DNA of 64,000 nt from Escherichia coli. GTDB lineage: Bacteria; Pseudomonadota; Gammaproteobacteria; Enterobacterales; Enterobacteriaceae. Below are positions 46,379 to 64,000 of the stretch, piece by piece. The DNA lies in NCBI RefSeq assembly GCF_050920415.1, contig NZ_CP169309.1; one strand, 5' to 3'. The notes beneath the pieces are model-generated. The model did no database searches and was not told where the DNA came from. It worked only from the letters and a program-made list of their open reading frames with translations. The position numbers and the translations under genes are program-made. Position 1 is the first letter of the stretch; every line of letters begins with the position of its first letter.

Positions 46379-46621
46379 GATGTAATCCTTGTGCAGACAA
46401 ATTTCTTGTTACCTAAACGTAACAATACCATGACATTTCACCGTTGTCTGCTCTGAAAACCTCACCTCTTAGCTGGATTTACAATCAACGCATTGATTAG
46501 TTAGCTAATGTTGCTACTTCCTTCCCTGACTATTGATGATCTGAATGAATTGTCGCGGTAAAATAGCCCCGCCAGGGGTTTCCGGCATGACGACAATTAT
46601 CTGGAGGAGCCTGATAAAACA

Positions 46622-47653: not shown

Positions 47654-47666
47654 TTCAGACATCACT

Positions 47667-47690
47667 GGCGTTACCCACAAGGGTAACGCC
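47667..47690. terminator. hairpin between convergent ynaI and mppA (putative terminator)
   Basis: GGCGTTACCC-acaa-GGGTAACGCC perfect inverted repeat; weak T-run. Confidence 0.4.
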
Positions 47691-47698
47691 AGTTCACA

Positions 47699-49309: not shown

Positions 49310-49352
49310 ATATTTTTTAACCTTAAAATAATATGGTACACACAATGGTACA

Positions 49353-49380
49353 CAAAAAGAAACGAGGCGTTAGCCTCGTT
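49353..49380 (-). terminator. intrinsic terminator downstream of the prophage tail-fibre gene
   Basis: AACGAGGC-gtta-GCCTCGTT hairpin followed on the minus strand by TCTTTTTGTG. Confidence 0.6.
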
Positions 49381-49409
49381 TCGCGGCGATGTTCTTCGCA
49401 CATCACCTC

Positions 49410-51782
49410 TTATTCTTCGCTTCCGGTCAACTGCTTAACAAGCGCAACCAGTTCGCTAACCTGATTTTCAAGATTGGTGATACGTTCATCCATGACAGTA
49501 ATGTTAGCACGTAAGCTGGCGTTTTCTTCTTCCAGTGCTGTAGCTTTCAACATTAAGGATTGTGTAACGTGCATTGTATCGAGCAATAAAGGCGTAGTAT
49601 CAAGCTCTTTCACCTCTATTTCTTTGTTGTTATTATCATAATGTGTTCTTGTTTTTACATATAACGGATCTATTAGTTCGGCTGATTGTGAAATAATGCC
49701 ACGCCGCACTCTTTCTTTTTCATCACCATTGAATACGAATGTTACGAAATCAAGGTTTTCTAAATTGCTCCACGCTTTATCTACGGTAGCGTGCTGCACA
49801 TTATGCTTAAATCTAATATCAGATATTGCATTTTTAGTAACCGTTGAGGTTTCTGTTACGGAATAATTATCCCATTTGGTAAAGTAAATGTTTGAATCAA
49901 ACGGGGCAATTTCAAGTCTTACTCCGTATTTGTTATCACTATCACCAACGCAGTTTAATGAAGTCCTAGCAAAACTAGTGGTATTGTGATGAATTAAACC
50001 GAGACTATACCAAGTCGCATACCCCGCTGAGGATGCTTGCCCTGCACTAAAATTGGAATTAAACGACCAGTTTTCACCTATATTAGTGTAAGGTACAACG
50101 AATGTTGCGCCGTGCGTTGGGATCTCACCCCAACTTAAAAGTTTTTGCGTTGTAGCCCTAAATGATGCTGATTCAAAAAGCCCGCTATCATTTACCGTAA
50201 TTCTCCCCTTGTTCCCTGATGTTTTATTTTCAACTTCAATAACTGCATAGTGGGATTGATCGATATACGCATCACCCCACATCGACACTTCGCATTCTGA
50301 GGCGTCACCGATCTTGTATACGGATTTTACAACACCTGTAGTTGATTTTGTTCCGGTTGATAGCCTTGTTTTGTCGGCGTTAATTACGCTCCAGGATGTA
50401 TTTGCAGCGGTAAAGCCACCAGATGCACGGATCACCCATACACCAACAAAGTTTCGTGTAAGAATTTCATCTGTTGATGCTCCATAAATCGGGCTACACC
50501 GTGACGCATCAAAAGTACATGTATTATAACGGCCTTCCAAAGCGGTTGTACCGCTAGGAATTGCATCACCTACACCGTCAGGAAATACACTGTTATCGGA
50601 GGAAAATGCACCATAAGATGTGCCAATGGCTTGCGCGTAACTCCCACCGGAATAAGTGGTAAAATAACCAGTAATATTTGGCGCGGCTGATTCAAATAGT
50701 TGTCCGTTTGCACTACTAACGCCACCATCACCTCGACCATAAAGCGCTCTGATCGATCCTTCTTGTATACCGTTTTTATCGGGAACGCGGAAAGTTGTTT
50801 CTCCGTCACCCGTGGAATATTTACCGCGTTGGAATTTATCAGCCAGCCATTCAGAATCATCTATAGCGCCCACCATTTGAGCGTAAGCCCACAATTCAGG
50901 CCAATCTGCACGGTTAAGTAATTGCCCGTCCGATGTAACCTCATAAGGCTGAATATAAGCGCGGCTATCGCGTAAGTGGAAATCCCCTACGCCGTAATTC
51001 ATAACACCGTTCATTGTTGGTCCGACTGTACCACTATTGATATAGTTCATTACCCAACGCATTGTTACAGCGTCGTAATCACTTACCGGATCGCCTGCTA
51101 ATGGCGTTGAACCTATTGGGCGAACGTTCAACCAGGCCGCCGCTCGGTCGGCAAGATCGGAAAGGTTATTTTGTATTCTTAGAAATGAATCCGGGTTTAT
51201 GTCGTTTTTGTACCCTTCCGCTATGTTTTTATATTCTTCGGCGTTAGCGGCGCTTTCTGCTGCGTTTACTGCCGCCCCTGTTGCGGTAACAGCCCCTTCT
51301 TCTGCTGTTTGTGCTGCTGCTTCTGCTGCTGCTTTAGATGATTCGGCGTCTGTTTTGTATTGCTGAGTTGTCGCTTTATCTGCGCTTACTTGCGCTGAGT
51401 CCGTGTGAACTTGGTTAACTAGTGCTATCAATCCATCAAGATCAAATTCCTGAAAAAATTCAACTGCGTTTGCAATTTCGGTTTCCTTGCCCTGATAGTA
51501 ACGCAGAGTTTCAGCAACATCTTGCGCTAAACCATCTACAGAAATCGAGTCTGAAAGCAGAATACTGAATTTTGTCCCGGCAGATATTGCAGGGTCGGCC
51601 GCAGGAGTTACTGATAATTCAGTTCCGCTCTTAATTTCGGTGATGGTAAATATCTGCACAGGATCGCTAACTGCAATCAGCGTGCACCCTTCCCGGATGA
51701 GCGAAAGCGGCGCGGTGAAGCTTGTCCCCAAGCCTGTAACAGTGTTACCACTAATAGCTATTGTTCCTGTTGTATAAATCAT
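49410..51782 (-). CDS. phage tail fibre protein with tail-collar domain and C-terminal peptidase-S74-like intramolecular chaperone
   Basis: 790 aa; Stf-like N-terminus; collar-domain motif (DWPELWAYAQ...GDGETTFRVPDKNG); C-terminal SDIRFKHNV motif followed by coiled coil, typical of autoproteolytic chaperone domains. Confidence 0.8.
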   Translation of the reverse strand: MIYTTGTIAISGNTVTGLGTSFTAPLSLIREGCTLIAVSDPVQIFTITEIKSGTELSVTPAADPAISAGTKFSILLSDSISVDGLAQDVAETLRYYQGKETEIANAVEFFQEFDLDGLIALVNQVHTDSAQVSADKATTQQYKTDAESSKAAAEAAAQTAEEGAVTATGAAVNAAESAANAEEYKNIAEGYKNDINPDSFLRIQNNLSDLADRAAAWLNVRPIGSTPLAGDPVSDYDAVTMRWVMNYINSGTVGPTMNGVMNYGVGDFHLRDSRAYIQPYEVTSDGQLLNRADWPELWAYAQMVGAIDDSEWLADKFQRGKYSTGDGETTFRVPDKNGIQEGSIRALYGRGDGGVSSANGQLFESAAPNITGYFTTYSGGSYAQAIGTSYGAFSSDNSVFPDGVGDAIPSGTTALEGRYNTCTFDASRCSPIYGASTDEILTRNFVGVWVIRASGGFTAANTSWSVINADKTRLSTGTKSTTGVVKSVYKIGDASECEVSMWGDAYIDQSHYAVIEVENKTSGNKGRITVNDSGLFESASFRATTQKLLSWGEIPTHGATFVVPYTNIGENWSFNSNFSAGQASSAGYATWYSLGLIHHNTTSFARTSLNCVGDSDNKYGVRLEIAPFDSNIYFTKWDNYSVTETSTVTKNAISDIRFKHNVQHATVDKAWSNLENLDFVTFVFNGDEKERVRRGIISQSAELIDPLYVKTRTHYDNNNKEIEVKELDTTPLLLDTMHVTQSLMLKATALEEENASLRANITVMDERITNLENQVSELVALVKQLTGSEE

Positions 51783-51941
51783 CTCAACAACTCCATAATG
51801 TTAACTTATGTGTCAATTCTACCATTTTGCGATCTGTGTTACATTTCTGTCTTATACAAAATGTATTTGTTGATTTACATCAATGTTGTGAAAATGCGGT
51901 TTGTGGATACTACAACCAACGAAACAACGGAGGGTAAGACA

Positions 51942-52181
51942 ATGAAAGGCTTAAAAAATATCGCTATCGCTGCAATGGTTGCTGGTCTGGTTGGTTGTGC
52001 TGATATGCCGAAACGTGAATGCACGGCAATTTATCAAACTGGCGGTAATGAGTATGCGGTTGCAGTCTTCGGTGTCGCGGATGTTGGTGGTCACAAAATG
52101 GCTAAGGCTGGGTATCCATTTAATTTTCAATGGGTGAGCGTTGACCACTTCAAGAAAACGGATTGCCCGGAATTGAATTAA
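51942..52181 (+). CDS. phage lipoprotein, possible Cor-like superinfection-exclusion protein
   Basis: 79 aa from ATG at 51942 with SD GGAGGG; lipobox LVGC; opposite-strand gene at the distal end of the tail module, where cor sits in N15/phi80-like phages; family assignment is inference. Confidence 0.5.
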   Translation: MKGLKNIAIAAMVAGLVGCADMPKRECTAIYQTGGNEYAVAVFGVADVGGHKMAKAGYPFNFQWVSVDHFKKTDCPELN

Positions 52182-52771
52182 TCATAGGCGTCGGTTTTAA
52201 TGGCGGTGATAGCGTTCCCGTGGTTAATATAGCCAGTTGGTGCATATACGCTACCCGCCTGGATGCCGTAAATTCTAGTTGTGCTTCCGTTGTAATAAGC
52301 CGCCGCATAAATGGATGCACTACCCTGTCCAACGAGCGCCCCTAACAATTGGGGGCAAATAGCATAAGAACCGGATAACGTTTGGTCTATATAAATTCCG
52401 CCGCTTGATCCTGCCGTCCCAACGGTTACAAGGTCTGTTAATATTCTTGATTCATTAGTTAGCACTAGTTCCCCGGAAGCGTTCCAAATAGCCATTCCCC
52501 ACTTCGGCAGCGATGGCGGGAAAATAGTGAAAATATACGCATACCCCGAACCAGCCCCGATTAGTAAAGTTGATGGGCTATTTCTATAAGCTAATACAGC
52601 GGCGGCGGTAGTGCTTTTTACAAATACCATCACGGGCTTCCCGGATGGCACGGCGACGGTTTGATTCGATGATGTTAATGTCACCCGTTCATATAAGCAA
52701 AGCGGCGTTGCTTCCGGTGTAACGAAAATATTCCCGTTACTTAATCTCAAATAAGCTCCGAAGGTTGCCAT
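52178..52771 (-). CDS. phage protein (197 aa) downstream of J, N-terminus MATFG
   Basis: ORF whose stop overlaps the next gene; shares the N-terminal MATFG with the adjacent 103 aa ORF; Gly/Ser/Thr-rich. Confidence 0.6.
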   Translation of the reverse strand: MATFGAYLRLSNGNIFVTPEATPLCLYERVTLTSSNQTVAVPSGKPVMVFVKSTTAAAVLAYRNSPSTLLIGAGSGYAYIFTIFPPSLPKWGMAIWNASGELVLTNESRILTDLVTVGTAGSSGGIYIDQTLSGSYAICPQLLGALVGQGSASIYAAAYYNGSTTRIYGIQAGSVYAPTGYINHGNAITAIKTDAYD

Positions 52772-53082
52772 TAAGCCACCTCCGCAAATATAACAATTTC
52801 ACACTGTGACGCGGGCCATATATTAGCGCCTACCGTATCCCCTGCCGAGGAAATGGAAACAGTACCACCCGAAATAGTGATCTTTCTGCGCGTCGTTGAC
52901 GTTGTGCCATAATCAAGCGTCATCCCATAAGATAATTTGCATCCGGTCGGCACTGTAAAGGTATATGTGCCGGATACCTGCCCGGATGATAAGGAAATAT
53001 AACCAACCACAACGGAAGGTTTAATTCCATAGTTATTAGCATTGCCGCTGGCGTCCCAGGTCGCTACGCCGAAAGTAGCCAT
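52771..53082 (-). CDS. phage protein (103 aa) downstream of J, N-terminus MATFG
   Basis: ORF immediately after J with SD (GGAGG); Gly/Ser/Thr-rich beta-type composition. Confidence 0.6.
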   Translation of the reverse strand: MATFGVATWDASGNANNYGIKPSVVVGYISLSSGQVSGTYTFTVPTGCKLSYGMTLDYGTTSTTRRKITISGGTVSISSAGDTVGANIWPASQCEIVIFAEVA

Positions 53083-53134
53083 AATTACACCTCCTTAATA
53101 AAAAACTGAGGCCGAACAAGTCGGCCCCTTAATT

Positions 53135-56100
53135 CTACCATGATCCGGTAATTCGCCCAATCTGGACGCGCAAAACCCCGTTACCGTCTTTTACCGAAAT
53201 AGTGGTATTAGTTAATTTCATCGCGCCCTCACCACTCACCGCGCCGTAGTTTTCGAATGTCCCGCCTTTATCCAGTTTCCATCCGGTACTGCCGGAAACA
53301 TAGTTATTTGACTGGATGTAAGAACCTATTTTCGCGTTGGTGATTGAGGCGTCTTTTATAAATGCTTCGCGAACATACATAGCGCCGTTTTCAACATAAA
53401 ATGGTGTCGTATATGTGCCGTTGGCGGCTGTCATTAATACGAAGCGGTCAACAAGAAAAATACATTGTGATTGCGTATTTGCGCCATCACCAGTTACCCC
53501 AAGCGATATTCCTGACGCGTATTTCATACCGTTGTTATCAGTAGCGATCTTGAGACTCCAAGTTGCCGACATATCACCATTAATATTGGTAATTGCTGTT
53601 TTGTTTTCCTCAATAAGCACTGATTGCCCATTAATTGATGCGGTTACTTCGCTAATTTGCTGCGCGGTTGCTTTTTCAAGCGTAACCATTGCTTGTTCAA
53701 GGTTTGTGACCTTCCCTTGAATATCATCACTTATTTTTGCTTCAAGCTCTGATAATGCTTTTGCTGTTGCCTCTTTTTCCGTTGCGACAACTTCATCTAT
53801 ACGCGTGATCTCTGCTTTTGATTGTTTCAACTGAGCGGAAAGTGTGCGTCTTGATGTTGTTTGAGCTACGGAATTATTAAGAAGCGCAATGGAAACGTTT
53901 TGCAAGCGGGCGCGAGTTTGTGTTAGTTCGCTATCCTGTTCCGAAAGCTCGACACCTATTTCGTCAATACGACTTTCATGAACCCCTAACCCCTCTTCGT
54001 TATTCTGGACGCGATTAATTAGATCTGATGTGGTATCCTTCAGATCGGTAACATCCCCTTTAAGTGTGCTCGTGTCACTAATCAACCCTTGAAATTGCTC
54101 GCTTTCCATGACTTCTTTCGTCACGAAATCTGTAATTTCGTCGAAGTCCTCCGTAGGCTTCCCGGATGCCTCAATAAAATCTGACACACCGAACGCGTTG
54201 CGGGTGCGAATGTACACATAATACATGTGGCCTGTGCTCATGCCGCCGAACGTCCATTGATAACCACGTCCGGTATACTGCGCTGACGTGGTTATGGTTG
54301 CCGGATCCGTAATCCTGTTTTCTCCGGCGTAATAAAATTCATATGCCGTATCAGTGGTGAGTGTTGTTTTGCTTATCGGGTAGACAGTAGCCTGAAATAC
54401 ACCAGGCACCCAATTTACACCGACAGGCGCGGATGGCGCTCCAATCACCAGATCGACGATGCTTTCTGCACCCTTCATGCCAGTGTCATTTCTGCCGCGA
54501 ACACCTAACGTGTATGAACCAGCATCAATGCCATAAAAATCATAACTGTATTTCGTGGTTTCATAGCTTTTAACCACCGCACCATCTGCATTGTATATGC
54601 GGATCTCGAATGTCATGCGATGAGTGGTAGTCTGTGTCTCCCACGTTGCGCGGCATTGAACTGTTTCCGATCCAATGTTTACTACCTTCAGATTTTCGAT
54701 GTTCGGCACACGGAAGTGATTAAGCGTGTCGCTGTTGATTTCGAAGATTGCGCCTTCATCGACTACGGCTTGTTTGTTAGGGTCGTGCTGCGCGGCTTCG
54801 ATAGTGTATACGCTGTTATTTTGTGTTTCTGCTACGCTGGTGATCCTACACAAAACTGGTTTTGCTGCGTTAGTTGATACAGCAAAAACAGTGCCATTTC
54901 GAATCCATGTTGGGGCCGCAGCAAGGGTGATATTGTTTCCGTTAACTCCGGTGATCTGGTGTTTTTTAAATTTGCCATCGCTATCAAGAAGGCTTATTGT
55001 GTCGCCAGCGGTCACATATTCAGAATCAACCTTATCTACAGTGATCACACGTCCATTGTTAGAGACAATACGACCGCCTAAGCGAGCGCCAGCACGGTTA
55101 TTGTCGAGTATCTCGATGATATCACCTGGCGTAAAGTGAATCGCGTCACGGGCCATTTTAAACGTGAATTTTGAAGGCTCGCGCTTCGCTGTTTCTATCA
55201 GCCATTTACCCGCCCGGTGCGCTTGCCCGCGTGATGTACACCCGAAAGCCTCCAGCGTGGTTTCGTTGTAGCCGTCACGGGCGATTAGTTCATCATCTGC
55301 GACATACTCTTTTGATTGTTCCCAGCCGTTTTCCGGATCAGTCCATGACACAATTACCGCGTTGTAGCATTCTGATCGCGCGATACTTGAACGGGTAAAT
55401 GCACCATCCACGACGTTTGCGTTAGTGATGGTTGCGATTGGGTCTTGTGGTGCATCAATCATTATAGTAAGGCGCTGACCATCCCATAACGCTATACCAC
55501 GGAACATCCCGGCGATGTTGTCCAGTAGGTCGCGGGCGCTCATTTGCTCTGTGATGTACGCGTTTAGCGTGACGCGCGGCTCTAAGCCACCATAGCCATC
55601 ATCAACCAACTGATCGCAGTATTGAGAGAGCGTATACAAAGCACCATCATCAACATCGATATAACCAGCCTGTCGAGCAAGGCCAAAACGCTCGTTTTTA
55701 ACCAAGTAGCGGAATATCCACGCCGGGTTATTTGTGTATGCCTTTTTAAGTCCGCCAAGCCATAAACCGGAATAATTTCGTTTTTCCGGGTCGTAGTTAT
55801 CCGGTACATCGACAATCAGCCCACGCAGATGATAAGTGCGTGTAGGTGTATCGGAGTACTGGTCATGGTCAATTACCGCGCCAGCTACAGCAGTGTGAGG
55901 ATAAGACAAGTTATCGTCGATGATTTCGCTATAACTGTTCCAGCGGGTATCGTTCTGTAATAGGTCGCTTACACTATCAGCCGTCACGCGGCGCACGCGA
56001 ATATCAAATGGCTTTTCATCCGGCGCATCAATGATATGAGACTCCAGATATTCACCGCTAATCTTACCCGGACCGATTTGTACGGCCTTAACCGCCGACC

Positions 56101-56554
56101 AGGTGGAAGACGAGGACGGTTTAACATCGATTGCCATAATGACAGACGTTTCTTTCTGGTTTGATTGGTTATCGCTTTCCACCAGTGAATCCACGCCAAT
56201 ATTTAGCCGGACGCGCGTCACGTTCGGATCTGATACCGTCCTGACCAGTGGCGTATCATGCTTTACCTGTGCGTTAACCATCACCGTTGATTCAATGGCG
56301 TTAAAGCCGTTGATCGGTGACTGGTCGGCAGTACCCGGACGCCAGGCGACACTAACGCCTGGAATGCTGGTATTACCTACCGCATCCGTAACAGGAGTGT
56401 CATTAAGCATTACGCAGTTTAACGGCGCGGCAGTATTGACAGGCCCATAAATCGGCCCTTCGCTCAATATATCAAGCACGCGATAAAACTGCTTATGGAA
56501 CAAGTTATCGTTTATTAATGTTGGTGTTTTTGCTTTACCACCGCCGCCGCCCAT
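53135..56554 (-). CDS. phage tail tip / host-specificity protein J
   Basis: 1139 aa (lambda J is 1132 aa); position after I; fibronectin-III-like central region. Confidence 0.9.
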   Translation of the reverse strand: MGGGGGKAKTPTLINDNLFHKQFYRVLDILSEGPIYGPVNTAAPLNCVMLNDTPVTDAVGNTSIPGVSVAWRPGTADQSPINGFNAIESTVMVNAQVKHDTPLVRTVSDPNVTRVRLNIGVDSLVESDNQSNQKETSVIMAIDVKPSSSSTWSAVKAVQIGPGKISGEYLESHIIDAPDEKPFDIRVRRVTADSVSDLLQNDTRWNSYSEIIDDNLSYPHTAVAGAVIDHDQYSDTPTRTYHLRGLIVDVPDNYDPEKRNYSGLWLGGLKKAYTNNPAWIFRYLVKNERFGLARQAGYIDVDDGALYTLSQYCDQLVDDGYGGLEPRVTLNAYITEQMSARDLLDNIAGMFRGIALWDGQRLTIMIDAPQDPIATITNANVVDGAFTRSSIARSECYNAVIVSWTDPENGWEQSKEYVADDELIARDGYNETTLEAFGCTSRGQAHRAGKWLIETAKREPSKFTFKMARDAIHFTPGDIIEILDNNRAGARLGGRIVSNNGRVITVDKVDSEYVTAGDTISLLDSDGKFKKHQITGVNGNNITLAAAPTWIRNGTVFAVSTNAAKPVLCRITSVAETQNNSVYTIEAAQHDPNKQAVVDEGAIFEINSDTLNHFRVPNIENLKVVNIGSETVQCRATWETQTTTHRMTFEIRIYNADGAVVKSYETTKYSYDFYGIDAGSYTLGVRGRNDTGMKGAESIVDLVIGAPSAPVGVNWVPGVFQATVYPISKTTLTTDTAYEFYYAGENRITDPATITTSAQYTGRGYQWTFGGMSTGHMYYVYIRTRNAFGVSDFIEASGKPTEDFDEITDFVTKEVMESEQFQGLISDTSTLKGDVTDLKDTTSDLINRVQNNEEGLGVHESRIDEIGVELSEQDSELTQTRARLQNVSIALLNNSVAQTTSRRTLSAQLKQSKAEITRIDEVVATEKEATAKALSELEAKISDDIQGKVTNLEQAMVTLEKATAQQISEVTASINGQSVLIEENKTAITNINGDMSATWSLKIATDNNGMKYASGISLGVTGDGANTQSQCIFLVDRFVLMTAANGTYTTPFYVENGAMYVREAFIKDASITNAKIGSYIQSNNYVSGSTGWKLDKGGTFENYGAVSGEGAMKLTNTTISVKDGNGVLRVQIGRITGSW

Positions 56555-56566
56555 AATAACCCCCTA

Positions 56567-57097
56567 TTAACTTACAACGTCCAGCGCGTCTTTATTGTTG
56601 GTTGTATCAATACCCAGGGATCCAACATTCGAACCTATTTTCATTTCACCCAATAAAATTGGAACGGGACGGCCCTGGCCTACTCTGTTTTCTACACTGG
56701 TGTAACTGTTATTTGTGATGCTATTATCCTGCGCACTTTCCGCTGATGTTTTTACTTTCATGTTTCGGGCCATGAAAATAGAAAACGCGATGCTTGCAAC
56801 GGAAAGGCCGATTAACAGCCAGCCAACCACACCGATCCCTGCGATACCACCTTCTACCACTGGCGCAACAATAATTGTTGTTCCGTCAGGGTATTCACTA
56901 TTAACGGCAGCAGGTGCGGTTTTTTCGTCGTAATCTTTCCCGGCAATGCGTAAGCGTAATGGCGTACTTAAAAACGCTCGCTTAAATTCCTGATTCTGTG
57001 CGGTCAATAAGCGAAGCCCTTGCGCGGGCGTATTAACGTTTAAACACACTTTGCTGTAATATCTTCGAAGATTGCCCGTAAATCTAAATTTGAGCAT
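56567..57097 (-). CDS. phage tail assembly protein I
   Basis: 176 aa ORF between K and J with central hydrophobic segment; 5' end overlaps K. Confidence 0.75.
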   Translation of the reverse strand: MLKFRFTGNLRRYYSKVCLNVNTPAQGLRLLTAQNQEFKRAFLSTPLRLRIAGKDYDEKTAPAAVNSEYPDGTTIIVAPVVEGGIAGIGVVGWLLIGLSVASIAFSIFMARNMKVKTSAESAQDNSITNNSYTSVENRVGQGRPVPILLGEMKIGSNVGSLGIDTTNNKDALDVVS

Positions 57098-57771
57098 TTG
57101 TCAGATCTCCATATTGAATGCGTTTGTCGAACATACGCTGGCCGCATTTGCTCGCGGCGGCTTAATAGTCCGGCATGGTCATGATGCAAAACCGTGTTAT
57201 CACCCAGGTAAAGCATTGCGTGACATGGATCCGCGCCTTTAAACGGCTGCCGGATGATCACGTCACCAGGCTGGATGTTTTGCGTGTCAATCTGAAAAAA
57301 ACCGTTTAGCGGCAAGTTTTTTAAATACAGGTTTTCACCGCGTAGCCACCACCCATCAAGGCGATCGAAGTCCGGCAGGTCTACGCCGCAAAGGTGATAG
57401 GCATCCCGAAAAAGCGTGTAACAATCAGTTGTCCCGTGTACAAATTTACGTCCTAGCAAGTGCGCCACCGGACGGAACTTCCTGATCTTGCCGCCTGAAT
57501 ATAAAAACCACGGCAGCCCGGAAATAACATGCTGTTGTCGATCCCGTGCCGACAATACCGGAATATCATCAACGTGGGAGTGAAAAACGGCGGTTATAAC
57601 GCCCAATTCGTCAGCTTTGATGTAATCGTCCGGCAAAATTTTAAAGCTGTTATGCGGCGTCTCAGACACGTTCACGCACGGGTAAAAATATTCATTGTCT
57701 ATCACCAGTCCGCAAACTTCCTCAAACGGATGTGCGGCGGCATAACGAAACATTTTGTCTTTCAGCGTCAT
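57040..57771 (-). CDS. phage tail assembly protein K (JAB/MPN plus NlpC/P60-like)
   Basis: Start taken at MTLKDKMFRY 2 nt after L stop; JAMM-like motif (FHSHVDD...S..D); lambda K homologue by position. Confidence 0.8.
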   Translation of the reverse strand: MTLKDKMFRYAAAHPFEEVCGLVIDNEYFYPCVNVSETPHNSFKILPDDYIKADELGVITAVFHSHVDDIPVLSARDRQQHVISGLPWFLYSGGKIRKFRPVAHLLGRKFVHGTTDCYTLFRDAYHLCGVDLPDFDRLDGWWLRGENLYLKNLPLNGFFQIDTQNIQPGDVIIRQPFKGADPCHAMLYLGDNTVLHHDHAGLLSRREQMRPAYVRQTHSIWRSDKCSNLDLRAIFEDITAKCV

Positions 57772-57773
57772 AA

Positions 57774-58511
57774 TCAACCTACCTTGCTTGATCCTGGAAA
57801 ACATGAGATCGGCAATGGATTTGGACGCGGGAAACGCAAGCGACAACCGCTTAGGCGGTGGCTGCACCTGTCTAATGTTGGATCGTTTGTCGGCTCGTCT
57901 TTGTCTGTAGCAACTGGCCCGCCAGAGTACGCACAGCCATCACCTCTATACTGCCACTGGCAAACGTCAGCAAGAATGGTGCGGCCTGGGATCACCGCCT
58001 TATCTGCATCAATTGGCGTTGACAACTCATATTGCACCTGATCCGCTGTTTCTTCACTCATGGCCTCTATAACGTAAAAGGACACCGCCTCAATAGATGG
58101 ATCAGCGTCAGGATTGCCATTTGGGAAGTTAACAGCGTCAAGGTATTTCACTTCCACCTGGCGGCGCGTAACCTTCATGCCTCGAAGGTCGTTATAGTCG
58201 GTATTCATCCCGGTAATGAGTCCGCCAATGTTTGCTACAGCCATTTGAGGGCGAGAATAAACTCCTTCGTTTTTCATTTCGAAGCCAGTAGCCTCGATTG
58301 GATAGCTGTTATAAGCCACGCCCTTCCAGATGACCGGACCGTAATAACCATTCGCGCCGGAATGGAAGCGGACAACCTCGCCACCAAGGGGAGTAAGGTC
58401 CAATTCGAACAAGTCAATGATTGCGCCGACTCCCGCATCGACGGAATCAATAATCATCTCTGTAGGTATATTGCGCATTTTATCACCTTGTTGTTTTGTG
58501 ATCTGCATCAC
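57774..58511 (-). CDS. phage minor tail protein L
   Basis: Recognisable similarity to lambda L (e.g. RRQVEVKYLDAVNFPNGN, QWQYRGDGCAYSG, C-terminal Cys cluster); exact start uncertain. Confidence 0.85.
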   Translation of the reverse strand: MMQITKQQGDKMRNIPTEMIIDSVDAGVGAIIDLFELDLTPLGGEVVRFHSGANGYYGPVIWKGVAYNSYPIEATGFEMKNEGVYSRPQMAVANIGGLITGMNTDYNDLRGMKVTRRQVEVKYLDAVNFPNGNPDADPSIEAVSFYVIEAMSEETADQVQYELSTPIDADKAVIPGRTILADVCQWQYRGDGCAYSGGPVATDKDEPTNDPTLDRCSHRLSGCRLRFPRPNPLPISCFPGSSKVG

Positions 58512-58616
58512 ACCGTGAATGCCAAAATGGATTGATAGCGTGATTTACAATATGTATATTTTACTCAAACGAACGGTAGTAAACAAAATGGCACAGTTTG
58601 GAACAGGATAGGACAC

Positions 58617-58775
58617 TATGAGATCCGCAAAATACGCAGAAAAAGTTTTCGTTGAAGTGAAAGGCGACATGAAAAAATTTATGGATGTTCTTATCAAAGA
58701 GATGGGAAAACCGTTCCATATAGCCGAACGTCAGTATTACGCTTGCAAGGCTAATAGCTACAACAGATACGCATG
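58617..58775 (+). CDS. moron ORF C1 (52 aa), unknown function
   Basis: First ORF of a compact plus-strand cassette inserted between tail genes L and M. Confidence 0.4.
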
Positions 58776-58798
58776 ACAATAAACACAAAGGTAACACT

Positions 58799-58891
58799 AT
58801 GCAAAAATATCGTCTTGATGTGTGGATGGCTGGAAATAAAGATTGGGAAGGTTTCGGATTATTTGACAGCCGCGAACTGGCTAACGACTAA
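58799..58891 (+). CDS. moron ORF C2 (30 aa), unknown function
   Basis: Short ORF with AAGG SD in the same cassette. Confidence 0.3.
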   Translation: MQKYRLDVWMAGNKDWEGFGLFDSRELAND

Positions 58892-58972
58892 GGGGAAAAA
58901 CTTGTTAACTTCTTTGGACGGGCCAGGGAGTTTTAAGTAACCCCGGTACAGATAGAAAATAAGGTGGAAGAG

Positions 58973-59152
58973 ATGAAATACGATATTGATAACGACGCTT
59001 GCTTTAAACAAAACTTTGCGGATTCTATGGATCAGTCTTGCCCTGAAATACACGCACACGGTTTCCCGGCAGATAATCCAGACATGAAACGCGAATACGA
59101 AAAAGCGGCGAAAGATTTCTGCATCGACAATCTGGGCGCATTCGATAGATAA
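58973..59152 (+). CDS. moron ORF C3 (59 aa, acidic, Cys/His-containing), unknown function
   Basis: ATG preceded by AAGGTGG; track ORF 58964..59152. Confidence 0.5.
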   Translation: MKYDIDNDACFKQNFADSMDQSCPEIHAHGFPADNPDMKREYEKAAKDFCIDNLGAFDR

Positions 59153-59161
59153 GGCGGCAAT

Positions 59162-59410
59162 ATGGCGAGGCGAAAACATAGCGATTATATGTACACGCTG
59201 AAGCAGGCCGCCCGCCTTATCGGTTATCATGAACACGAATTTATTGATTTGCTGATTGAGCGCGGGATTTTATACCAGGTCTGTTTAACGCTGTACCCGA
59301 AAGCGAAATACTTGCAGGAAAAGTTATTCATCATCATGACGGATGAAAACCAGGTTAATCACTCATTCGTCACTGCCAAAGGCGTTAATTATCTGCGCGA
59401 TAACTTATAG
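59162..59410 (+). CDS. moron ORF C4 (82 aa), putative HTH-containing protein
   Basis: ATG preceded by AAGGCGG; segment TLKQAARLIGYHEHEFIDLLIERGIL resembles a helix-turn-helix. Confidence 0.5.
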   Translation: MARRKHSDYMYTLKQAARLIGYHEHEFIDLLIERGILYQVCLTLYPKAKYLQEKLFIIMTDENQVNHSFVTAKGVNYLRDNL

Positions 59411-59420
59411 GTGACAGATT

Positions 59421-59537
59421 ATGAAAATAGAAGTTTTGGCGCTAATAGTAATGGGATTGATAGTATTTGGTGTTCATGCTGTAGATCTGGACTGGAAAAC
59501 GATAGCAGAAAATATAGCGTTAATGGAAATGGAATAA
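59421..59537 (+). CDS. moron ORF C5 (38 aa), small hydrophobic membrane peptide
   Basis: ATG preceded by AGGTGA; single predicted TM helix (LALIVMGLIVFGV); followed directly by a terminator. Confidence 0.4.
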   Translation: MKIEVLALIVMGLIVFGVHAVDLDWKTIAENIALMEME

Positions 59538-59541
59538 TAAT

Positions 59542-59560
59542 AACCCCGCTTCGCGCGGGG
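59542..59560. terminator. intrinsic terminator closing moron cassette C (possibly bidirectional)
   Basis: CCCCGC-ttcg-GCGGGG hairpin followed by TCGTGTTTAT. Confidence 0.65.
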
Positions 59561-59566
59561 TCGTGT

Positions 59567-59752
59567 TTATACGCCATCAAGTAAAAATAAAACTTCCTTG
59601 CCTTCTCTTGATCTGCATCCTACATAACCGTCACCCATGTCATGAAGATACCAGGTCTCACCATTATCAGCTTTTACAGTAAGATCGTTGATTTCATAGT
59701 CGTCAAACAATGTAAAAGCGCCCGTGCGGTCCACTACACAAATAGCATACAT
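59567..59752 (-). CDS. small phage protein (61 aa) between M and L, unknown function
   Basis: ORF starting MYAICVVDRTG with SD GGAGG; start lies 14 nt 3' of the M stop on the same strand. Confidence 0.45.
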   Translation of the reverse strand: MYAICVVDRTGAFTLFDDYEINDLTVKADNGETWYLHDMGDGYVGCRSREGKEVLFLLDGV

Positions 59753-59765
59753 ATTGACACCTCCA

Positions 59766-60119
59766 TTAATTGACAACTTGCTCAAAAGTTGCGTTTAGCG
59801 TGTACAAAGACCCGTCTTTAGTCATGCTCCATCGGCGGCAAACAAAAAGCCTTTGCACGTTATCCATCGACGGCGACCAGTAAAAAGCCTCGACCGCGCC
59901 GCGCGCCCTCAAGAATGCTTCCGCCTGGATTGCTACGTTTTCACCATCACCACATCCGGCGCTACTGCCTTTAAATACCAGGGTGTAGCTATCAAGCAAT
60001 GGATTGATACCTTTTACCTGTCTTTGCTCATAACCATCGCCCAGCTTAACAACGGATACGTCCGGCTCCCTGGTCACGCTGTAGCTTCGTTGTGGCGTCC
60101 ATCTGAACACTTCCGGCAT
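59766..60119 (-). CDS. phage minor tail protein M
   Basis: 117 aa; similarity to lambda M including FRW near the N-terminus, GDGY.QR, and identical C-terminal FEQVVN. Confidence 0.88.
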   Translation of the reverse strand: MPEVFRWTPQRSYSVTREPDVSVVKLGDGYEQRQVKGINPLLDSYTLVFKGSSAGCGDGENVAIQAEAFLRARGAVEAFYWSPSMDNVQRLFVCRRWSMTKDGSLYTLNATFEQVVN

Positions 60120-60308
60120 AAAACCCCCATAAGTTACATTTTGTATATATCTTTACGCGCTTCTACGCGAAAAATAAGATCTTCATCACAATGATTATAG
60201 CTAGTTTACAAAATGGCTTCACATAGCACACAACAAGATGTATATAAAAAGCAAGAAGAAAAGCAGTACCAACGAAGGAGGCCCAAAAATGAAACGCTAT
60301 GAGTAGTA

Positions 60309-60443
60309 ATGCTAAACAACGCATTCGAACAAGTGGAAATAGCAATCGTTAAGGGTTTCGACGACGCATTTAAATACGGTCAATTCATGATTAATGCAAA
60401 AGAAGATGAATACCGTGATTTCTTCCTGAAGGCTCTTAATTAA
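60309..60443 (+). CDS. moron ORF B1 (44 aa), unknown function
   Basis: ATG 2 nt after the stop of a 5-codon mini-ORF (MKRYE) that has an AGGAGG SD, suggesting translational coupling. Confidence 0.35.
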   Translation: MLNNAFEQVEIAIVKGFDDAFKYGQFMINAKEDEYRDFFLKALN

Positions 60444-60462
60444 GAATAATCGGGGGTGAGCT

Positions 60463-60717
60463 ATGAAACTGGTAGCGATTGACAAAAACCTGAAAGTACA
60501 GAAAAACGCACAGGACCGGATTATCAAGAAAGGTAAGGAACTGCTTAAAGCATTTTTGAAGAAAGAGGCGCGCCCCAAAAAGTTACGCGATGGTTATGGC
60601 TTTAAATTCGATATCAATCATGACTGGCGGCTGTTCAGCGAAGACCTCAAAGTCTGGTTAATAATCGATCACCTGGAATATAACAGGCACTGCGGGGTTA
60701 AAGGGGCGCATAAGTGA
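60463..60717 (+). CDS. moron ORF B2 (84 aa), candidate RelE/ParE-superfamily (HigB/Gp49-like) toxin
   Basis: ATG with SD GGGGGTGAG; basic N-terminal helices and C-terminal RDGYGFKFDINHDWRLFSEDLKVWLIIDHLEY pattern resembling the RelE/HigB beta-sheet core; assignment by pattern recognition only. Confidence 0.5.
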   Translation: MKLVAIDKNLKVQKNAQDRIIKKGKELLKAFLKKEARPKKLRDGYGFKFDINHDWRLFSEDLKVWLIIDHLEYNRHCGVKGAHK

Positions 60718-60725
60718 GGCGGGAT

Positions 60726-60818
60726 ATGGAGGACGATAAATTCACCTGGCGGGAGATCTGGAATATTTGGTTGGTGATGTTTTCTCGCAGCTATATAGCC
60801 AGAAACGGAAGATTGTAA
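60726..60818 (+). CDS. moron ORF B3 (30 aa), unknown function
   Basis: Short ORF with SD (GAGGCGG) abutting B2. Confidence 0.3.
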   Translation: MEDDKFTWREIWNIWLVMFSRSYIARNGRL

Positions 60819-60836
60819 TTTGCGGAGGAAAATAAA

Positions 60837-61013
60837 ATGAAAAACCCGGCAAATAAAAGCAATGTAAAACGTATAGCCTGGATCGTGAAATGGATGGATA
60901 GTAAAGGAGACACATATACTGAACCATTTTTCAAACATACTGATGCAGTATTTGCAAGAAGCGTAAGAGGCGGGAAAATTGAAAGAGGATATACAAGTTT
61001 TGAGAATAACTAA
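60837..61013 (+). CDS. moron ORF B4 (58 aa), unknown function
   Basis: ATG with GGAGG SD; followed by a strong terminator. Confidence 0.45.
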   Translation: MKNPANKSNVKRIAWIVKWMDSKGDTYTEPFFKHTDAVFARSVRGGKIERGYTSFENN

Positions 61014-61020
61014 AATATAA

Positions 61021-61050
61021 CCCCGGCATTGTACCGGGGTTTTGTTTATT
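61021..61050. terminator. intrinsic terminator closing moron cassette B, overlapping the 3' end of the tape-measure gene
   Basis: CCCCGG-cattgta-CCGGGG followed by TTTTGTTTATTT. Confidence 0.8.
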
Positions 61051-63385
61051 TGCGGCGCGGTTGCAATATTCCCCCTGGTCTTTGTGATTCCCTTGTTATC
61101 ATTTTCATTGCCACACGTTCCATTGTTTGTTCAAGTCTGCGGCTATCTTCGTCGCTAAATCCGTTTGTGGTCTGAATGTTAATATTGACAGGCATACTAA
61201 TACCGCCGCCACCAATATCACGACCAGGTATAACCCTGCCATTCTCGCCAGGAATCATGTATTGATTGCCGTTAGACGTCTGGAATAGCTCCGGCCTGTT
61301 GTGTTCCCCTACACGGTACATGTTGCCACCAATGACGCTACCACCATTAAAGCGCCCGCCGCCGAAAATGGATGTTGCCAGTGACATGATCGCAGTAAGC
61401 GCCGCCGAGCCAGCCGCCGCCCAGCTACCGCCAGTTGATGCCGCTGTCGCTGCCGCCGCCGGGGCCGCCGCCGCAGCAATGCTTCCCTGAGCGGCAACCG
61501 CGCTTGCCGTTGTGCTGGCCTGCGTGGCCTTGCTTTGTGTCTCCATCATGATTTGATCTGCTATCCAGTTGGCAGCTATGTCCGAAAGTCTGTTACCGAT
61601 ATTCCCAAGTATATTGCTTCCTAAGTTAGCAAAAACATCACTTAATGATTGAGTGCCGTTTAGCAGGCCAACAAGGGCGTTACTCATACCACCTTTAAGG
61701 CCATTAACGCAATCACCGATCAGGCCGTTAGTATCGCTTTGCGCCTGCCATTGCTCCCATTTTAGATCGCGAATCTGTTGCTCATAGGCCAACAATTCCT
61801 GTTTCTGTTGCGCTTCGGTAGCGCCCAGGTCTATAAGCATTTGCTTACGGACGGCCCATTCATTTTGCGCCTGCTGGATGGGGTCAACTTCGCCTTTTAG
61901 CTGGTCCATCGGGCTAACTATTTGCGACCATTTATCACGCAATTCATCTACCGGAATTTGTGCTAACTCTTCTTTTAGCTCCTTGCCGATTCCCTTTTGA
62001 GCGGCGCGGTATTCAAGGAGTGTAATTTTCCCCTGGGCGAATGCAGCATCAATGGCCTTGCCGTTCTCTAACGCTTTGCGCATGGCGGCTGCGTCTTTGT
62101 TGTACTGGTCAGAAACGCTTATGCCTTTGTCACCAAGCCGATCAGCTTCAGTTTTCTTCTCTTTTTTCTGTTTTTTCGGCTTGTCTACTGGCTTGTCGAA
62201 TCCGGTAATAGTTCCGTCATTGGCGGCATTCTGTTCACTTTTCCTTGCTTCTTCTGTAGCCTGGATTGCAGCGGTCAGATCATCCTGTAATTGCATGACC
62301 TTACCAACGGTCTTACCATATTTCTTCTCATAGTTGCTGTCGTATTCGTCGGTTTGTTCTCCTACCACCTCTTTCATCCATTTGTAGCCGTCCATTAGCG
62401 CTTTGATTGGTGTCACCATTGCGATGATCTTCTCTGCCACCTCACCAGCCTTGATTCCGACATCCTCAAATATATCAATGAATTCGCTGCCAGCCGTCTT
62501 CAGGGTGATAAAGCAGGTTTTAGCGAAATCAGCACCATCACCTAAAGCCTTAACACCTTTCGTGACAAGATCGATACCAGCAACAACCGTATCGGATACA
62601 CCAAAAAGATCGTCCAACTGTTCGACAAGCCCCATAACTTCGACTTTAAGCTCATTCAGGGCCATACCGGATGTGCGCGGCAACTGCGCGAACTTCTCGT
62701 TTGTTTCCTGCGTAGCCGCCTGGATTGCGTTAACCATCCTTTCTGCCGTGATCTTACCGTCCAGCATTTCGGCGCGGAATTGGCCCATAGATAACCCCAT
62801 CTGGCGGGCCATTGTCTGTACGATGGTCGGGGTGTTCTCTAACAGGCTATTGAATTCTTCAGCACGAAGCACGCCGCCGTCGATAGACTGACGGAATTGA
62901 CGCATTGAGTTTGACATCTGCTCCGCAGATGCGCCGCCCAACGCCCCCATTTTCTGAATCGTACCTACCAGGTTAAGCAATTGCCCTTCAGTGGCGGACG
63001 TGTTCTTCAGGGAGATAGCCAGGCCTTGCCACAGATCCCCGGTATCCTTCATGCTTTGGCCTGTTTCTTTTGATATTGCTTTCAGGCCGTCGAAAACCCG
63101 CCCGGCGGACTCCGCATCGCCCGTAAGCATTTTGATTTTTACGCGAAGCATTTTTGCTTGCTCCGCCATATCCATAAATTGGCGCACAGCCTCCGCAGCA
63201 ATTAGCAGATGGATAACCCTGGTTAGTGCTTTGATTGATGTCTTCAGTGTGTTTACCTGGCGATCTGCCTGTTTAGCACCGCGCTCTATACGGTCAAAGG
63301 CCTGGTCTGCCTGTCGTTGTGCTACAAGAAGTTGTCCTGTTTTTGCGTCAACTTCGTAATAAATTGTGCCTACACTGGTAGCCAT
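61046..63385 (-). CDS. phage tail tape-measure protein (lambda H-like)
   Basis: 779 aa, alpha-helical and Ala/Gly-rich, Gly-rich C-terminal segment; located upstream of M. Confidence 0.88.
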   Translation of the reverse strand: MATSVGTIYYEVDAKTGQLLVAQRQADQAFDRIERGAKQADRQVNTLKTSIKALTRVIHLLIAAEAVRQFMDMAEQAKMLRVKIKMLTGDAESAGRVFDGLKAISKETGQSMKDTGDLWQGLAISLKNTSATEGQLLNLVGTIQKMGALGGASAEQMSNSMRQFRQSIDGGVLRAEEFNSLLENTPTIVQTMARQMGLSMGQFRAEMLDGKITAERMVNAIQAATQETNEKFAQLPRTSGMALNELKVEVMGLVEQLDDLFGVSDTVVAGIDLVTKGVKALGDGADFAKTCFITLKTAGSEFIDIFEDVGIKAGEVAEKIIAMVTPIKALMDGYKWMKEVVGEQTDEYDSNYEKKYGKTVGKVMQLQDDLTAAIQATEEARKSEQNAANDGTITGFDKPVDKPKKQKKEKKTEADRLGDKGISVSDQYNKDAAAMRKALENGKAIDAAFAQGKITLLEYRAAQKGIGKELKEELAQIPVDELRDKWSQIVSPMDQLKGEVDPIQQAQNEWAVRKQMLIDLGATEAQQKQELLAYEQQIRDLKWEQWQAQSDTNGLIGDCVNGLKGGMSNALVGLLNGTQSLSDVFANLGSNILGNIGNRLSDIAANWIADQIMMETQSKATQASTTASAVAAQGSIAAAAAPAAAATAASTGGSWAAAGSAALTAIMSLATSIFGGGRFNGGSVIGGNMYRVGEHNRPELFQTSNGNQYMIPGENGRVIPGRDIGGGGISMPVNINIQTTNGFSDEDSRRLEQTMERVAMKMITRESQRPGGILQPRRK

Positions 63386-63536
63386 GATTTAACCTCATGC
63401 AAAATGTGATCTATGCATCTATTTTATACAAAATGTCTTTATTTTAACGATACCGTTTTGTATAGATGATGTAGGGAAAGATAGAAGAGATGCAGGAAGG
63501 ACGGATGTCCCGGAGGAAGTGAAAGAGGATAAGGAA

Positions 63537-63620
63537 ATGAGAAACGTAAACTACCGTCCCAACGAATATGAACGCTATGCGGACCTTATCGAAGAAATGT
63601 TAAAAGCACTTAAAAAATAA
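63537..63620 (+). CDS. moron ORF A1 (27 aa), unknown function
   Basis: Short ORF with purine-rich SD upstream of the secreted-protein gene. Confidence 0.25.
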   Translation: MRNVNYRPNEYERYADLIEEMLKALKK

Positions 63621-63687
63621 ACAATATGCGTGTATAACTAAGTTAAAGGAAGCATTTAGCAAATCAGAATAATTACAGGGGTTGATT

Positions 63688-64000
63688 ATGAAACGGTTAG
63701 CAAAAATGGTACTTGCTGTGATTGCTGCACTGGCATTTAACGCGAACGCTAACGAGGCCATAAACATTAACTGTGAAGAAGTGGCAAACCATGTAGCCGC
63801 ATATCACGACATGATCAAAAAAGAACCAGCCGCACCCACAATTCTTTTTAAGGCAATTGATAAAAATTTTGAAGGGAAACCAGTTTGTGCTCGTTGGTTT
63901 AATTATGGCCTTGTAAACGAGGCTGCTGTAGGCGTAGTCTTTGAAAACAACAGCGAAATAAAAAACAGGATAGCTAACGAGTGTAAAGCAAATAAAGTTG
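63688..64000 (+). CDS. moron ORF A2, secreted Cys-containing protein (partial, runs off window end)
   Basis: ATG at 63688 with SD (AGGGG); cleavable signal peptide MKRLAKMVLAVIAALAFNANA; no stop before position 64000. Confidence 0.55.
   Translation, partial: MKRLAKMVLAVIAALAFNANANEAININCEEVANHVAAYHDMIKKEPAAPTILFKAIDKNFEGKPVCARWFNYGLVNEAAVGVVFENNSEIKNRIANECKANKV

Follow-up and report, generated by a model that had tools for sequence, protein, structure and literature searches.

A candidate operator of a CI-like repressor at four antisense cassettes in the tail operon of an mEpimmI prophage

The CI/Cro operators of phage lambda (OR1-3 and OL1-3) are among the closest described counterparts of the element considered here, a 15-bp motif (TACAAAATG) that recurs in a prophage of the mEpimmI group (mEp021 family). 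The prophage lies in a stretch of 64,000 nucleotides from the Escherichia coli contig NZ_CP169309.1, hereafter referred to as the window, where its minus-strand tail genes are interrupted at four junctions by plus-strand gene cassettes, each accompanied by the motif. The features shared with lambda comprise a CI-homologous repressor, Rep, with a helix-turn-helix (HTH) N-terminal and an S24-type C-terminal domain, near-dyads of 15-17 bp that are paired at a distance of 24-25 bp over the -35 and -10 regions of an early promoter, and a site near position -42 of the repressor's own, probably leaderless, gene. In contrast to the six lambda operators, which form two clusters beside cI, the mEpimmI phages contain approximately 17-20 dispersed sites, at least eight of them in the late tail operon. 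Further differences are the location of the strongest mEpimmI sites, which lie beyond the immunity region, the strong asymmetry of the site with its conserved central A-tract, and an early rightward promoter that follows the repressor gene and its terminator. Lambda itself is not known to carry genes at these tail junctions.

Accessory genes among late genes are known from several phages. In P22, the immI region (mnt-arc-ant) comprises an Ant-like gene with repressor-controlled promoters among late genes; these are controlled by the dedicated repressors Mnt and Arc, whereas in the mEpimmI phages we propose the main immunity repressor, with four cassettes sharing the control. In T5 (llp) and in lambdoid phages (cor), as in the prophage analysed here, the gene encoding an exclusion lipoprotein adjoins the fibre or receptor-binding gene; in T5, llp is transcribed early and points away from the receptor-binding gene, which is a late gene. 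Phage ES18 (NC_006949) likewise harbors small genes at the same four positions, several of them on the opposite strand, with terminators and including Cor. However, the ES18 morons are single genes, and a shared motif was sought among them and not found, whereas the mEpimmI cassettes represent multi-gene operons of 0.7-1.9 kb with conserved core genes and a common candidate operator. The tai/ati "noncontiguous operon" of phi80 similarly contains an accessory gene antisense in a Q-dependent late operon, with opposing transcription; there, tai defends the lysogen and no shared operator network is described, whereas the mEpimmI geometry predicts repression in the lysogen (PMC11364771). Many repressor sites distributed over early and late intergenic gaps, as in the mEpimmI phages, are further known as the stoperators of the Cluster A mycobacteriophages (L5 gp71), which are oriented with transcription, are bound by a monomeric two-domain repressor and block elongation (PMC9283540, PMC6550527). 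While the dispersed intergenic copies agree with this type of site, the mEpimmI sites occur in both orientations, even within one junction, are paired at 25 bp and keep a register with promoters, and Rep has a dimerising S24 domain. Taken together, each element has a precedent, be it the presence of morons at these junctions in ES18, the CI operator or the dispersal of repressor sites, whereas their combination into a CI-type operator network that extends to four antisense multi-gene cassettes of a tail operon is not described in the literature searched.

The mEpimmI family was described in 2025 as Nus-dependent, non-lambdoid and forming a single immunity group, across which Rep is approximately 96% similar and in which Rep021 given in trans blocks all six family members tested (PMC11893012). 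The Lpp exclusion lipoproteins of the family, which exclude phages if expressed from a plasmid, are published as well (PMC11893012). The sole remark on operators in this description is that those of Rep021 probably differ from those of lambda CI; otherwise, it is silent on the motif, on the cassettes as units and on the operators of Rep (PMC11893012).

The motif at the tail junctions and across the phage family

The four junctions are designated A (between the tail fibre gene and the post-J genes), B (L/M), C (M/H) and D (upstream of H). The degenerate 12-mer TWTACAAWATGK matches the 64 kb of the window five times (positions 51853, 58544, 60136 on the minus strand, 60205 and 63425), always at one of these junctions, where 0.11 matches are expected, and none of 100 shuffles reached five. 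Likewise, TATACAAAATGTATA at up to two mismatches yields one site per junction and zero elsewhere in the window. A repeated motif at the junctions had been postulated in the original prediction, which was made from the letters of the window, and these counts bear it out. The partner copies quoted at 51821-51830 and 63454-63464 are present too, as are the two copies at junction B, although their coordinates were off by one and have to be corrected to 58544-58558 and 58580-58594. In the 49 kb of host DNA in the window, TWTACAAWATGK does not match once. On the other hand, the motif is not specific for the cassettes, since it is the top over-represented word of the phage and is also found at the early promoter, at a terminator/nut site and in most early gaps.

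The site can be described as a 15-bp element, T(A/T)TAC-AAAAT-G(T/G)ANN, in which the dyad TATAC-N5-GTATA takes a form with an A-tract at its centre. In an unbiased 8-mer scan, its core ACAAAATG is the top over-represented 8-mer of the mEp021 genome (17 observed, 3.6 expected). In the prophage of E. coli O157:H7 LSU61 (18 observed, 3.4 expected) it is essentially tied for the top, with one word ranked just above. When a position weight matrix (PWM) built from motif instances was employed, with hits of at least 13 bits considered good, 17 of the 18 hits in mEp021 were intergenic, compared to an intergenic portion of 12.3% of the genome (p = 5e-15). The 17-20 sites per phage are scattered over nearly all larger intergenic gaps. 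For the family comparison, we used seven annotated relatives and 44 family loci from IMG/VR. The tail loci from IMG/VR contain 221 strong hits in 779 kb, 217 of them in the four junctions, and the early loci 278 in 820 kb. Neither the related, ES18-like tail modules (604 kb) nor ES18 itself nor the host part of the window (49 kb) gave a strong hit. This confinement to the family argues for a phage-family-specific factor and against a host factor or a generic promoter feature.

Outside the tail operon, sites are located at the promoter between the rep terminator and the N-like gene gp17, in the rep/gp14 intergenic region, in the gp17/18 and gp25/26 gaps, on both sides of terminator t4 beside nutR2, upstream of the helicase gene and, in LSU61, in the post-Q gap. 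At the early promoter as well as at junctions B, C and D, the arrangement follows a fixed register, consisting of the core ACAAAATG, 2 nucleotides, a -35-like hexamer, 17 nucleotides and a -10-like hexamer. The early promoter, positioned downstream of rep and upstream of nutR1 and gp17, reads TATACAAAATGGA-TTGACT-17-TATATT, and at its position -16 we found TTTAC-GGGGC-GTATA, which retains the outer half-sites but differs in the centre. This module is retained in all 44 loci, as are the sites at positions -78 and about -43 relative to rep. A partner site is present at a distance of exactly 25 bp at junctions B, C and D and in the post-Q gap, and of 24 bp at gp25/26, whereas approximately 0.02 such spaced pairs are expected per genome by chance. 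At B, C and D, the second copy covers the spacer and the -10 region. Moreover, the motif blocks are near-invariant in the relatives, with a conservation of 0.92-0.94 in the operator columns versus 0.81-0.88 in the other intergenic columns (32-39 distinct family sequences). Phylogenetic footprinting of the rep region was uninformative, as this region is conserved as a whole (approximately 90%).

Two individual records deserve mention. In the IMG/VR family locus L064 (approximately 10351-10480), the entire M/L cassette is lost, leaving a gap of 129 bp in which the operator-like sequence TTTACAATATGTATA is retained. In the mEp021 record (20076-20155), two strong inverted copies at a distance of 64 bp flank the predicted terminator t4 just upstream of the nutR2 boxA; this pair could represent a repressor roadblock or loop guarding read-through toward the Q gene.

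At junction A, the operator-like copy A0 (51819-51833, minus strand; reverse complement ATCGCAAAATGGTAG) is invariant in the relatives and overlaps a candidate leftward extended -10 sequence (TGgTAGAAT) approximately 27 nucleotides upstream of the fibre start codon. The plus-strand operator A1 (TATACAAAATGTATT, 51853-51867, PWM score 23.0) is centred at about -42 of a weaker candidate promoter, TTGTTG (51867-51872) -17- TGtGAAAAT (51887-51895). The control region of junction B (58519-58594, plus strand), near-invariant in the seven annotated relatives, comprises three direct copies at 58519-58533 (weak), 58544-58558 (19.7) and 58580-58594 (15.8). Their centres correspond to positions of about -41, -16 and +21 with respect to the promoter TTGATA (58532-58537) -17- TATATT (58555-58560).

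At junction C, operator C0 (TATACAAAATGTAAC, score 20.1; 60133-60147, minus strand) lies directly upstream of the Shine-Dalgarno sequence of M, leaving no space for a promoter. The promoter-operator module of this junction (60205-60246, plus strand) contains operator C1 (TTTACAAAATGGCTT, 21.6; 60205-60219), the -35 hexamer TTCACA (60218-60223), a 17-nucleotide spacer and the -10-like hexamer TATATA (60241-60246). The latter is overlapped by the degenerate, weaker copy ACAAGATGTATA (60230-60244), the centre of which (60237) is 25 bp from that of operator C1. The segment between the two strong operators of this junction (60150-60185) contains a short inverted repeat (tacgcg-cttc-tacgcga-aaaat) and is well conserved, which none of the explanations tried accounts for. 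The control region of junction D (63396-63466, plus strand) consists of a weak copy (63396-63410), operator D1 (TATACAAAATGTCTT, 22.2; 63425-63439), the -35-like hexamer TTTATT (63438-63443), a 17-nucleotide spacer and the -10-like hexamer TATAGA (63461-63466), which lies within the inverted operator D2 (63450-63464); D1 and D2 have a centre-to-centre distance of 25 bp. In the relatives, the -35-like and -10-like hexamers of junction D read TTCACT and TATAAA, respectively.

Candidate promoters directed toward the tail genes are present on the minus strand of all junctions as well (51816-51844, 58558-58586, 60194-60222 and 63421-63450). In this order, they exhibit good -10 sequences (TGgTAGAAT, TAAAAT, TATAAT and TAAAAT) together with weak -35 hexamers, and operators are located inside or adjoining them; at junction C, for instance, operator C1 constitutes the spacer of GTGAAG-17-TATAAT (60222-60194). 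The junctions may therefore represent divergent promoter pairs under common control.

Co-occurrence with the CI-like repressor and proposed control of the cassettes

Rep is a homolog of lambda CI across the HTH and the cooperativity/cleavage domain (3bdn, E 3.6e-19). Homologs of Rep were collected by a profile search with its N-terminal domain combined with context look-ups, and they share a similar recognition helix, (I/V)(T/S)(K/P)G..xHW(L/M)(N/T)(G/D)(R/K)R.P. Four diverged and mutually independent lineages with an N-terminal identity of 43-58%, namely L054-56 (Morganellaceae-type), L188 (metagenomic), L189 and L190/191, harbor two to four copies of TATAC-N5-GTATA in their own cro/repressor gap when copies with up to two mismatches are counted, and few or none elsewhere in the locus. 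The L054-type phages contain a further pair, spaced 23 bp, downstream of the repressor gene. The sister group L185-187, which has an N-terminal identity of 72%, carries the motif at its early promoter downstream of rep, with the sequence TATACAAAATGG-ta-TTGCAT-16-TATAGT, and additional copies in other gaps, whereas its cro/rep gap contains no copy at up to two mismatches. A second scan of IMG/VR with an alignment of the N-terminal domain did not reveal new lineages. The divergent partner gene of the repressor varies, being gp14-like in the mEpimmI phages and an HTH_3 Cro gene in L185, L189 and L190. As known for lambda-type operators, repeated near-dyads cover the -35 and -10 regions of an early promoter next to rep, and the site co-occurs with the DNA-binding domain of the repressor across lineages while being absent from the outgroup with related tails. 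Of all observations, this co-occurrence of dyad and repressor argues most strongly for the motif being the operator of the CI subfamily in question.

We therefore propose, with a probability of about 0.6, that the motif is the operator of the family immunity repressor Rep, and that the cassettes are off in lysogens and fire together with the early genes. The Cro-like protein of the phage probably binds the motif as well. Binding by Rep, together with the direction and the timing of regulation, is inferred. The sites at -41 and -16 are placed at near-consensus promoters in the layout of the early promoter, which must be silent in a lysogen, and this implies repression by Rep. Owing to the CI-like C-terminal domain and the 25-bp spacing, the binding is probably cooperative.

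In a lysogen, Rep would accordingly occupy the sites and shut the four antisense cassettes together with the early genes. Upon infection or derepression, the cassettes would fire as immediate-early accessory genes, among them those for the Cor exclusion lipoprotein, the KilAC/Ant-like protein and the ParE-like toxin, the last preceded by a small partner gene, as well as those for variable small proteins. Q-antiterminated transcription of the late genes would subsequently cross the cassettes in the opposite sense, while the bidirectional terminators would shield cassettes and tail genes from unmodified polymerase. Further copies, which lack a promoter context, are placed immediately ahead of the fibre, M and H genes and on either side of t4/nutR2; these might act as auxiliary, looping or roadblock sites, in analogy to stoperators.

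Judged on these grounds, the view expressed in the original prediction that a shared cis-regulatory element ties the four cassettes to one regulator is supported. The accompanying assumption of expression in the lysogen is not, as the -41/-16 geometry and the link to a CI-like repressor predict the opposite. The notion of a defence hotspot fares no better, since the PADLOC defence models did not yield a match among ten cassette proteins (E of at most 0.01) and Cor alone represents a known exclusion function.

More tentatively, and as a picture that we consider somewhat less probable than its alternatives taken together, the phages could possess a hybrid of lambda operators and stoperators. In such a system, a CI-type repressor would control a network of about 20 sites, four antisense, cargo-swapping cassettes would have been captured as immediate-early genes, and roadblock or looping sites would be placed before tail genes and around the nut site and terminator. 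The cassettes would then constitute a "second early region" for exclusion, anti-repressor and toxin functions that is shut by head-on late transcription.

For the operators of Rep in the mEpimmI phages, the prediction offered here is T(A/T)TAC-N5-GTA(T/A)A, of which the A-tract-centred sequence is the form with a high score; a wider subfamily of CI-like repressors from phages of Enterobacterales and Morganellaceae is covered by the same prediction. If the proposal is true, accessory cassettes in tail operons need not be lysogenic-conversion genes, as they could be early genes wired into the lysis/lysogeny switch, and the family would offer a genetically accessible E. coli K-12 model for dispersed repressor sites and for the conflict that arises where early and late transcription meet head-on. 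Among the conserved small proteins, phrog_38567, the KilAC-only protein and the C1/ParE-like pair are candidates for a function in early host takeover or anti-defence.

Several observations weigh against control by Rep as proposed. The information in the site is asymmetric, with a strong left half and A-tract and a weak right half, and the centre-blind dyad TWTAC-N5-GTAWA is enriched only approximately two-fold; the recognised unit may thus not be a simple symmetric dyad. A pure symmetric dyad was in fact rejected as a description of the motif for this low enrichment, much of the signal residing in the A-tract centre. In addition, the matches in the cro/rep gap of the family itself, at 13-15 bits and with a spacing of 35 bp, score below the tail sites, and the early promoter has one high-scoring site only. 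At junctions C and D, the rightward promoters are uncertain, since the near-invariant T is missing from position 6 of their -10-like hexamers, whereas the leftward candidates at all four junctions have better -10 hexamers. Finally, activation rather than repression would fit the classical expression of Cor and of toxin-antitoxin-like genes from prophages.

The last points lead to the alternative that survives best, although we regard it as unlikely. Here, the cassettes would be morons expressed in the lysogen, the promoters of which are activated by a protein bound at about -41, either Rep, as at lambda P_RM, or another phage factor, so that the cargo serves the lysogen. Position -41/-42 is the classical position of a class II activator, orientation and register are fixed at four promoters, and the promoters at C and D look suboptimal unaided. 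Yet the same module drives the early operon with the N-like antiterminator, which cannot be activated in a lysogen, and the second site lies over the -10 region or spacer at B, where it is the strongest, at D and, in a weaker form, at C. Furthermore, the promoter at B and the early promoter are near-consensus and do not need an activator. Cassettes B and C do bear hallmarks of morons, namely a lower G+C content, an own promoter and a terminator (TTGATA-17-TATATT and hairpin 59543-59561 for B; TTCACA-17-TATATA and hairpin 61019-61041 for C); for cassette A, a weak candidate promoter and no terminator were found, and the end of cassette D lies beyond the window. In phi80 and N15, Cor serves lysogenic conversion (cited in PMC11364771), and phi80 tai, an antisense gene within a late operon, defends the lysogen (PMC11364771), whereas apart from Cor none of the cassette proteins belongs to a defence or exclusion family.

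It appears even less probable that another DNA-binding protein of the phage, either the Cro-like/MarR-like gp14 alone or the KilAC protein of cassette B, governs a regulon separate from immunity. Both proteins are conserved in the family, and the asymmetry of the motif would suit a winged-helix or monomeric binder; however, the dyad follows the CI-type repressor across lineages with differing divergent partner genes, and the KilAC gene is absent from the immunity regions of those lineages.

We consider it least probable of all that no dedicated regulator exists and that the motif is an intrinsic promoter feature (a UP-element-like A-tract with a -35 and a TGTATA -10-like sequence) or a host-factor site spread by shared promoter ancestry: the A-tract at -45 to -40 does resemble a proximal UP subsite, inverted copies create -10-like hexamers in both directions and TTATACAAA fits the relaxed DnaA-box consensus, but strong matches are lacking in the 604 kb of related enterobacterial phage tails and the 49 kb of host DNA, many copies lie outside a promoter context (before the M Shine-Dalgarno sequence, flanking t4/nutR2 and between gp17 and gp18), UP elements leave the invariant C and TG(G/T) unexplained, the promoters do not represent simple duplicates of each other, as their spacers have retained no homology, and the same dyad occurs in the immunity regions of unrelated phages with homologous repressors. 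The sites of the host transcription factors DnaA, OmpR, NsrR, Fis, TyrR, PhoP and CpxR were compared with the motif and rejected because neither the host DNA nor related phages infecting the same hosts contain it, the DnaA box also because the conserved ATG(G/T) falls outside it. Promoter duplication was discarded for the reason given and because the first genes of cassettes B and C, B1 and C1, encode unrelated proteins. A leaderless start at the ATG of the motif was discarded as well, as the downstream frames stop after two to four codons at B and D.

Cassette genes, tail module and host flank

Open reading frames (ORFs) on the plus strand with a Shine-Dalgarno sequence are present in all four junctions (51942-52181, 58618-59410, 60309-61013 and 63537 to beyond 64000). 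The ORF list and the annotation of the relatives thereby confirm the four plus-strand cassettes among minus-strand tail genes. Opposite-strand cassettes occupy the same four junctions in all seven annotated relatives, and in the 44 IMG/VR loci the H-M gap measures 685-1397 bp and the M-L gap 1197-1892 bp, with a single locus of only 129 bp at M-L. Rather than being insertions peculiar to this prophage, the cassettes are fixed across the mEpimmI phages, and ES18 has morons at the same junctions. According to crude ORF clustering, 24 gene architectures exist in 42 loci at M/L and 17 in 43 loci at H/M. In both gaps, two to three promoter-proximal core genes are near-universal (37-42 of 42-43 loci), whereas the distal slots vary. 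The core consists of a B1-type gene, phrog_38567 and the KilAC protein gene at M/L, and of C1 and the ParE-like protein gene at H/M. The reservation made in the original prediction, that the junctions might carry identical gene content as fixed core genes in all related phages, hence applies to the core but not to the content as a whole.

As outgroup served 36 loci with an M protein identity of 66-70%; those checked are ES18-like Salmonella phages or gave weak matches to Klebsiella or other phages. Their gaps range from 0 to 500 bp at H/M (3 kb in one locus) and from 39 to 800 bp at M/L. The ES18 record annotates "possible morons" at chaperone/H, H/M and M/L and, on the opposite strand, a cor gene that separates the post-J genes from the tail fibre gene. 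As ES18 and its relatives share the slots, the junctions represent general accessory-gene slots of this tail lineage and are not prophage-specific.

Cassette A consists of a single gene (51942-52181, plus strand) that encodes a Cor-type superinfection-exclusion lipoprotein of 79 amino acids with the lipobox LVGC. Its membership in the Cor family is indicated by this lipobox together with a hidden Markov model score above the curated cutoff (NCBIfam NF047972, 53.9 bits, cutoff 31) and a match to phrog_1119 (E 3.6e-23), and it is the sole cassette protein that matches a known exclusion or defence family. The gene overlaps the convergent post-J gene by 4 nucleotides, and a terminator was searched for in this cassette and not found.

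The genes of cassette B (58618-59538, plus strand) start with B1 (58618-58776, 52 amino acids), followed by a homolog of phrog_38567 that is split into pieces of 30 and 59 amino acids (58799-58891 and 58973-59152). As the gene is intact in the annotated relatives (approximately 116-117 amino acids), the split version (58799-59152) is probably a pseudogene in this prophage. The KilAC/ANT-domain protein is encoded at 59162-59410 (PF03374, E 2.3e-7), and the cassette ends with a bidirectional GC hairpin terminator (59543-59561; -16.3 and -16.1 kcal/mol, z -2.7 and -2.6), which in the late direction lies directly downstream of the minus-strand ORF 59567-59785.

Cassette C, likewise on the plus strand, comprises C1 (60309-60443, phrog_29810), the gene for a protein with a ParE-like toxin domain (60463-60717; PF24732 ParE_like, E 6.9e-11), a small ORF (60726-60818) and C3 (60837-61013). 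Compared to the relatives, the N-terminus of C1 is affected by a 1-nucleotide deletion (60290-60443), and restart at an internal ATG yields 44 instead of 51 amino acids. This gene of 44-51 codons is located 19 nucleotides upstream of the ParE-like gene, and the two occur together in 41 of 43 loci; profile searches of the Pfam, NCBIfam and PHROG type did not assign C1 to an antitoxin family. The bidirectional terminator of this cassette (61019-61041; -17.0 and -16.8 kcal/mol, z -3.9 and -4.6) is positioned 5 nucleotides past the end of the H gene. Of the three cassettes that had been reported to end in a hairpin, only B and C do so inside the window.

Cassette D encodes on the plus strand a 27-amino-acid ORF (D1, 63537-63620) and a signal-peptide protein (D2) that starts at 63688 and continues beyond the end of the window at 64000, with a length of 137 amino acids in the relatives. 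Searches of Pfam, NCBIfam and PHROG gave nothing informative for B1, D1 and D2, leaving the cassette D proteins without a family match.

The tail genes, identified from the ORF list and the annotation of the relatives, are all encoded on the minus strand and comprise the tail fibre gene (49410-51782), two post-J genes (52178-53082), J (53135-56554), I (56567-57097), K (57040-57867), L (57774-58511), a small ORF after M (59567-59785), M (59766-60119) and the tape measure gene H (61046-63385). The relatives are annotated with the same minus-strand order of fibre, two post-J genes, J, I, K, L, M and H, and the 5′-end of the fibre gene is homologous to their tail-fibre genes. The G+C content amounts to 0.41-0.44 in cassettes B and C versus 0.47-0.51 in the tail genes.

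The first 49 kb of the window are host DNA, and the tail end of the prophage extends from near 49.4 kb to the end at 64 kb. The fibre gene is the last prophage gene before the adjoining minus-strand ORF 47699-49345, which is mppA by position, as it lies within a stretch aligning at 95.8% to the uspE-mppA flank of LSU61, where mppA is annotated. A megablast search with 51.7-64 kb identified the mEpimmI phages MagusPhagus (86%) and mEp021, mEp010, mEp044, mEp554, mEp013 and mEp515 (80-82%), as well as 34 E. coli prophages, the best of which was LSU61 with 93%; among complete E. coli genomes, none matches the tail region of the prophage at more than 93%. The host flank (45775-49498, uspE-ynaJ-ynaI-mppA) shares no more than 95.8% identity with E. 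coli O157:H7 LSU61, a low value within this species, and the host may belong to a divergent Escherichia lineage.

Different from the window, mEp021 (6475-7041 of locus L002) and mEp515 (7130-7696 of locus L008) contain an extra gene on the late strand between the tail genes I and J, which is annotated as HNH endonuclease in mEp021 and as hypothetical protein in mEp515.

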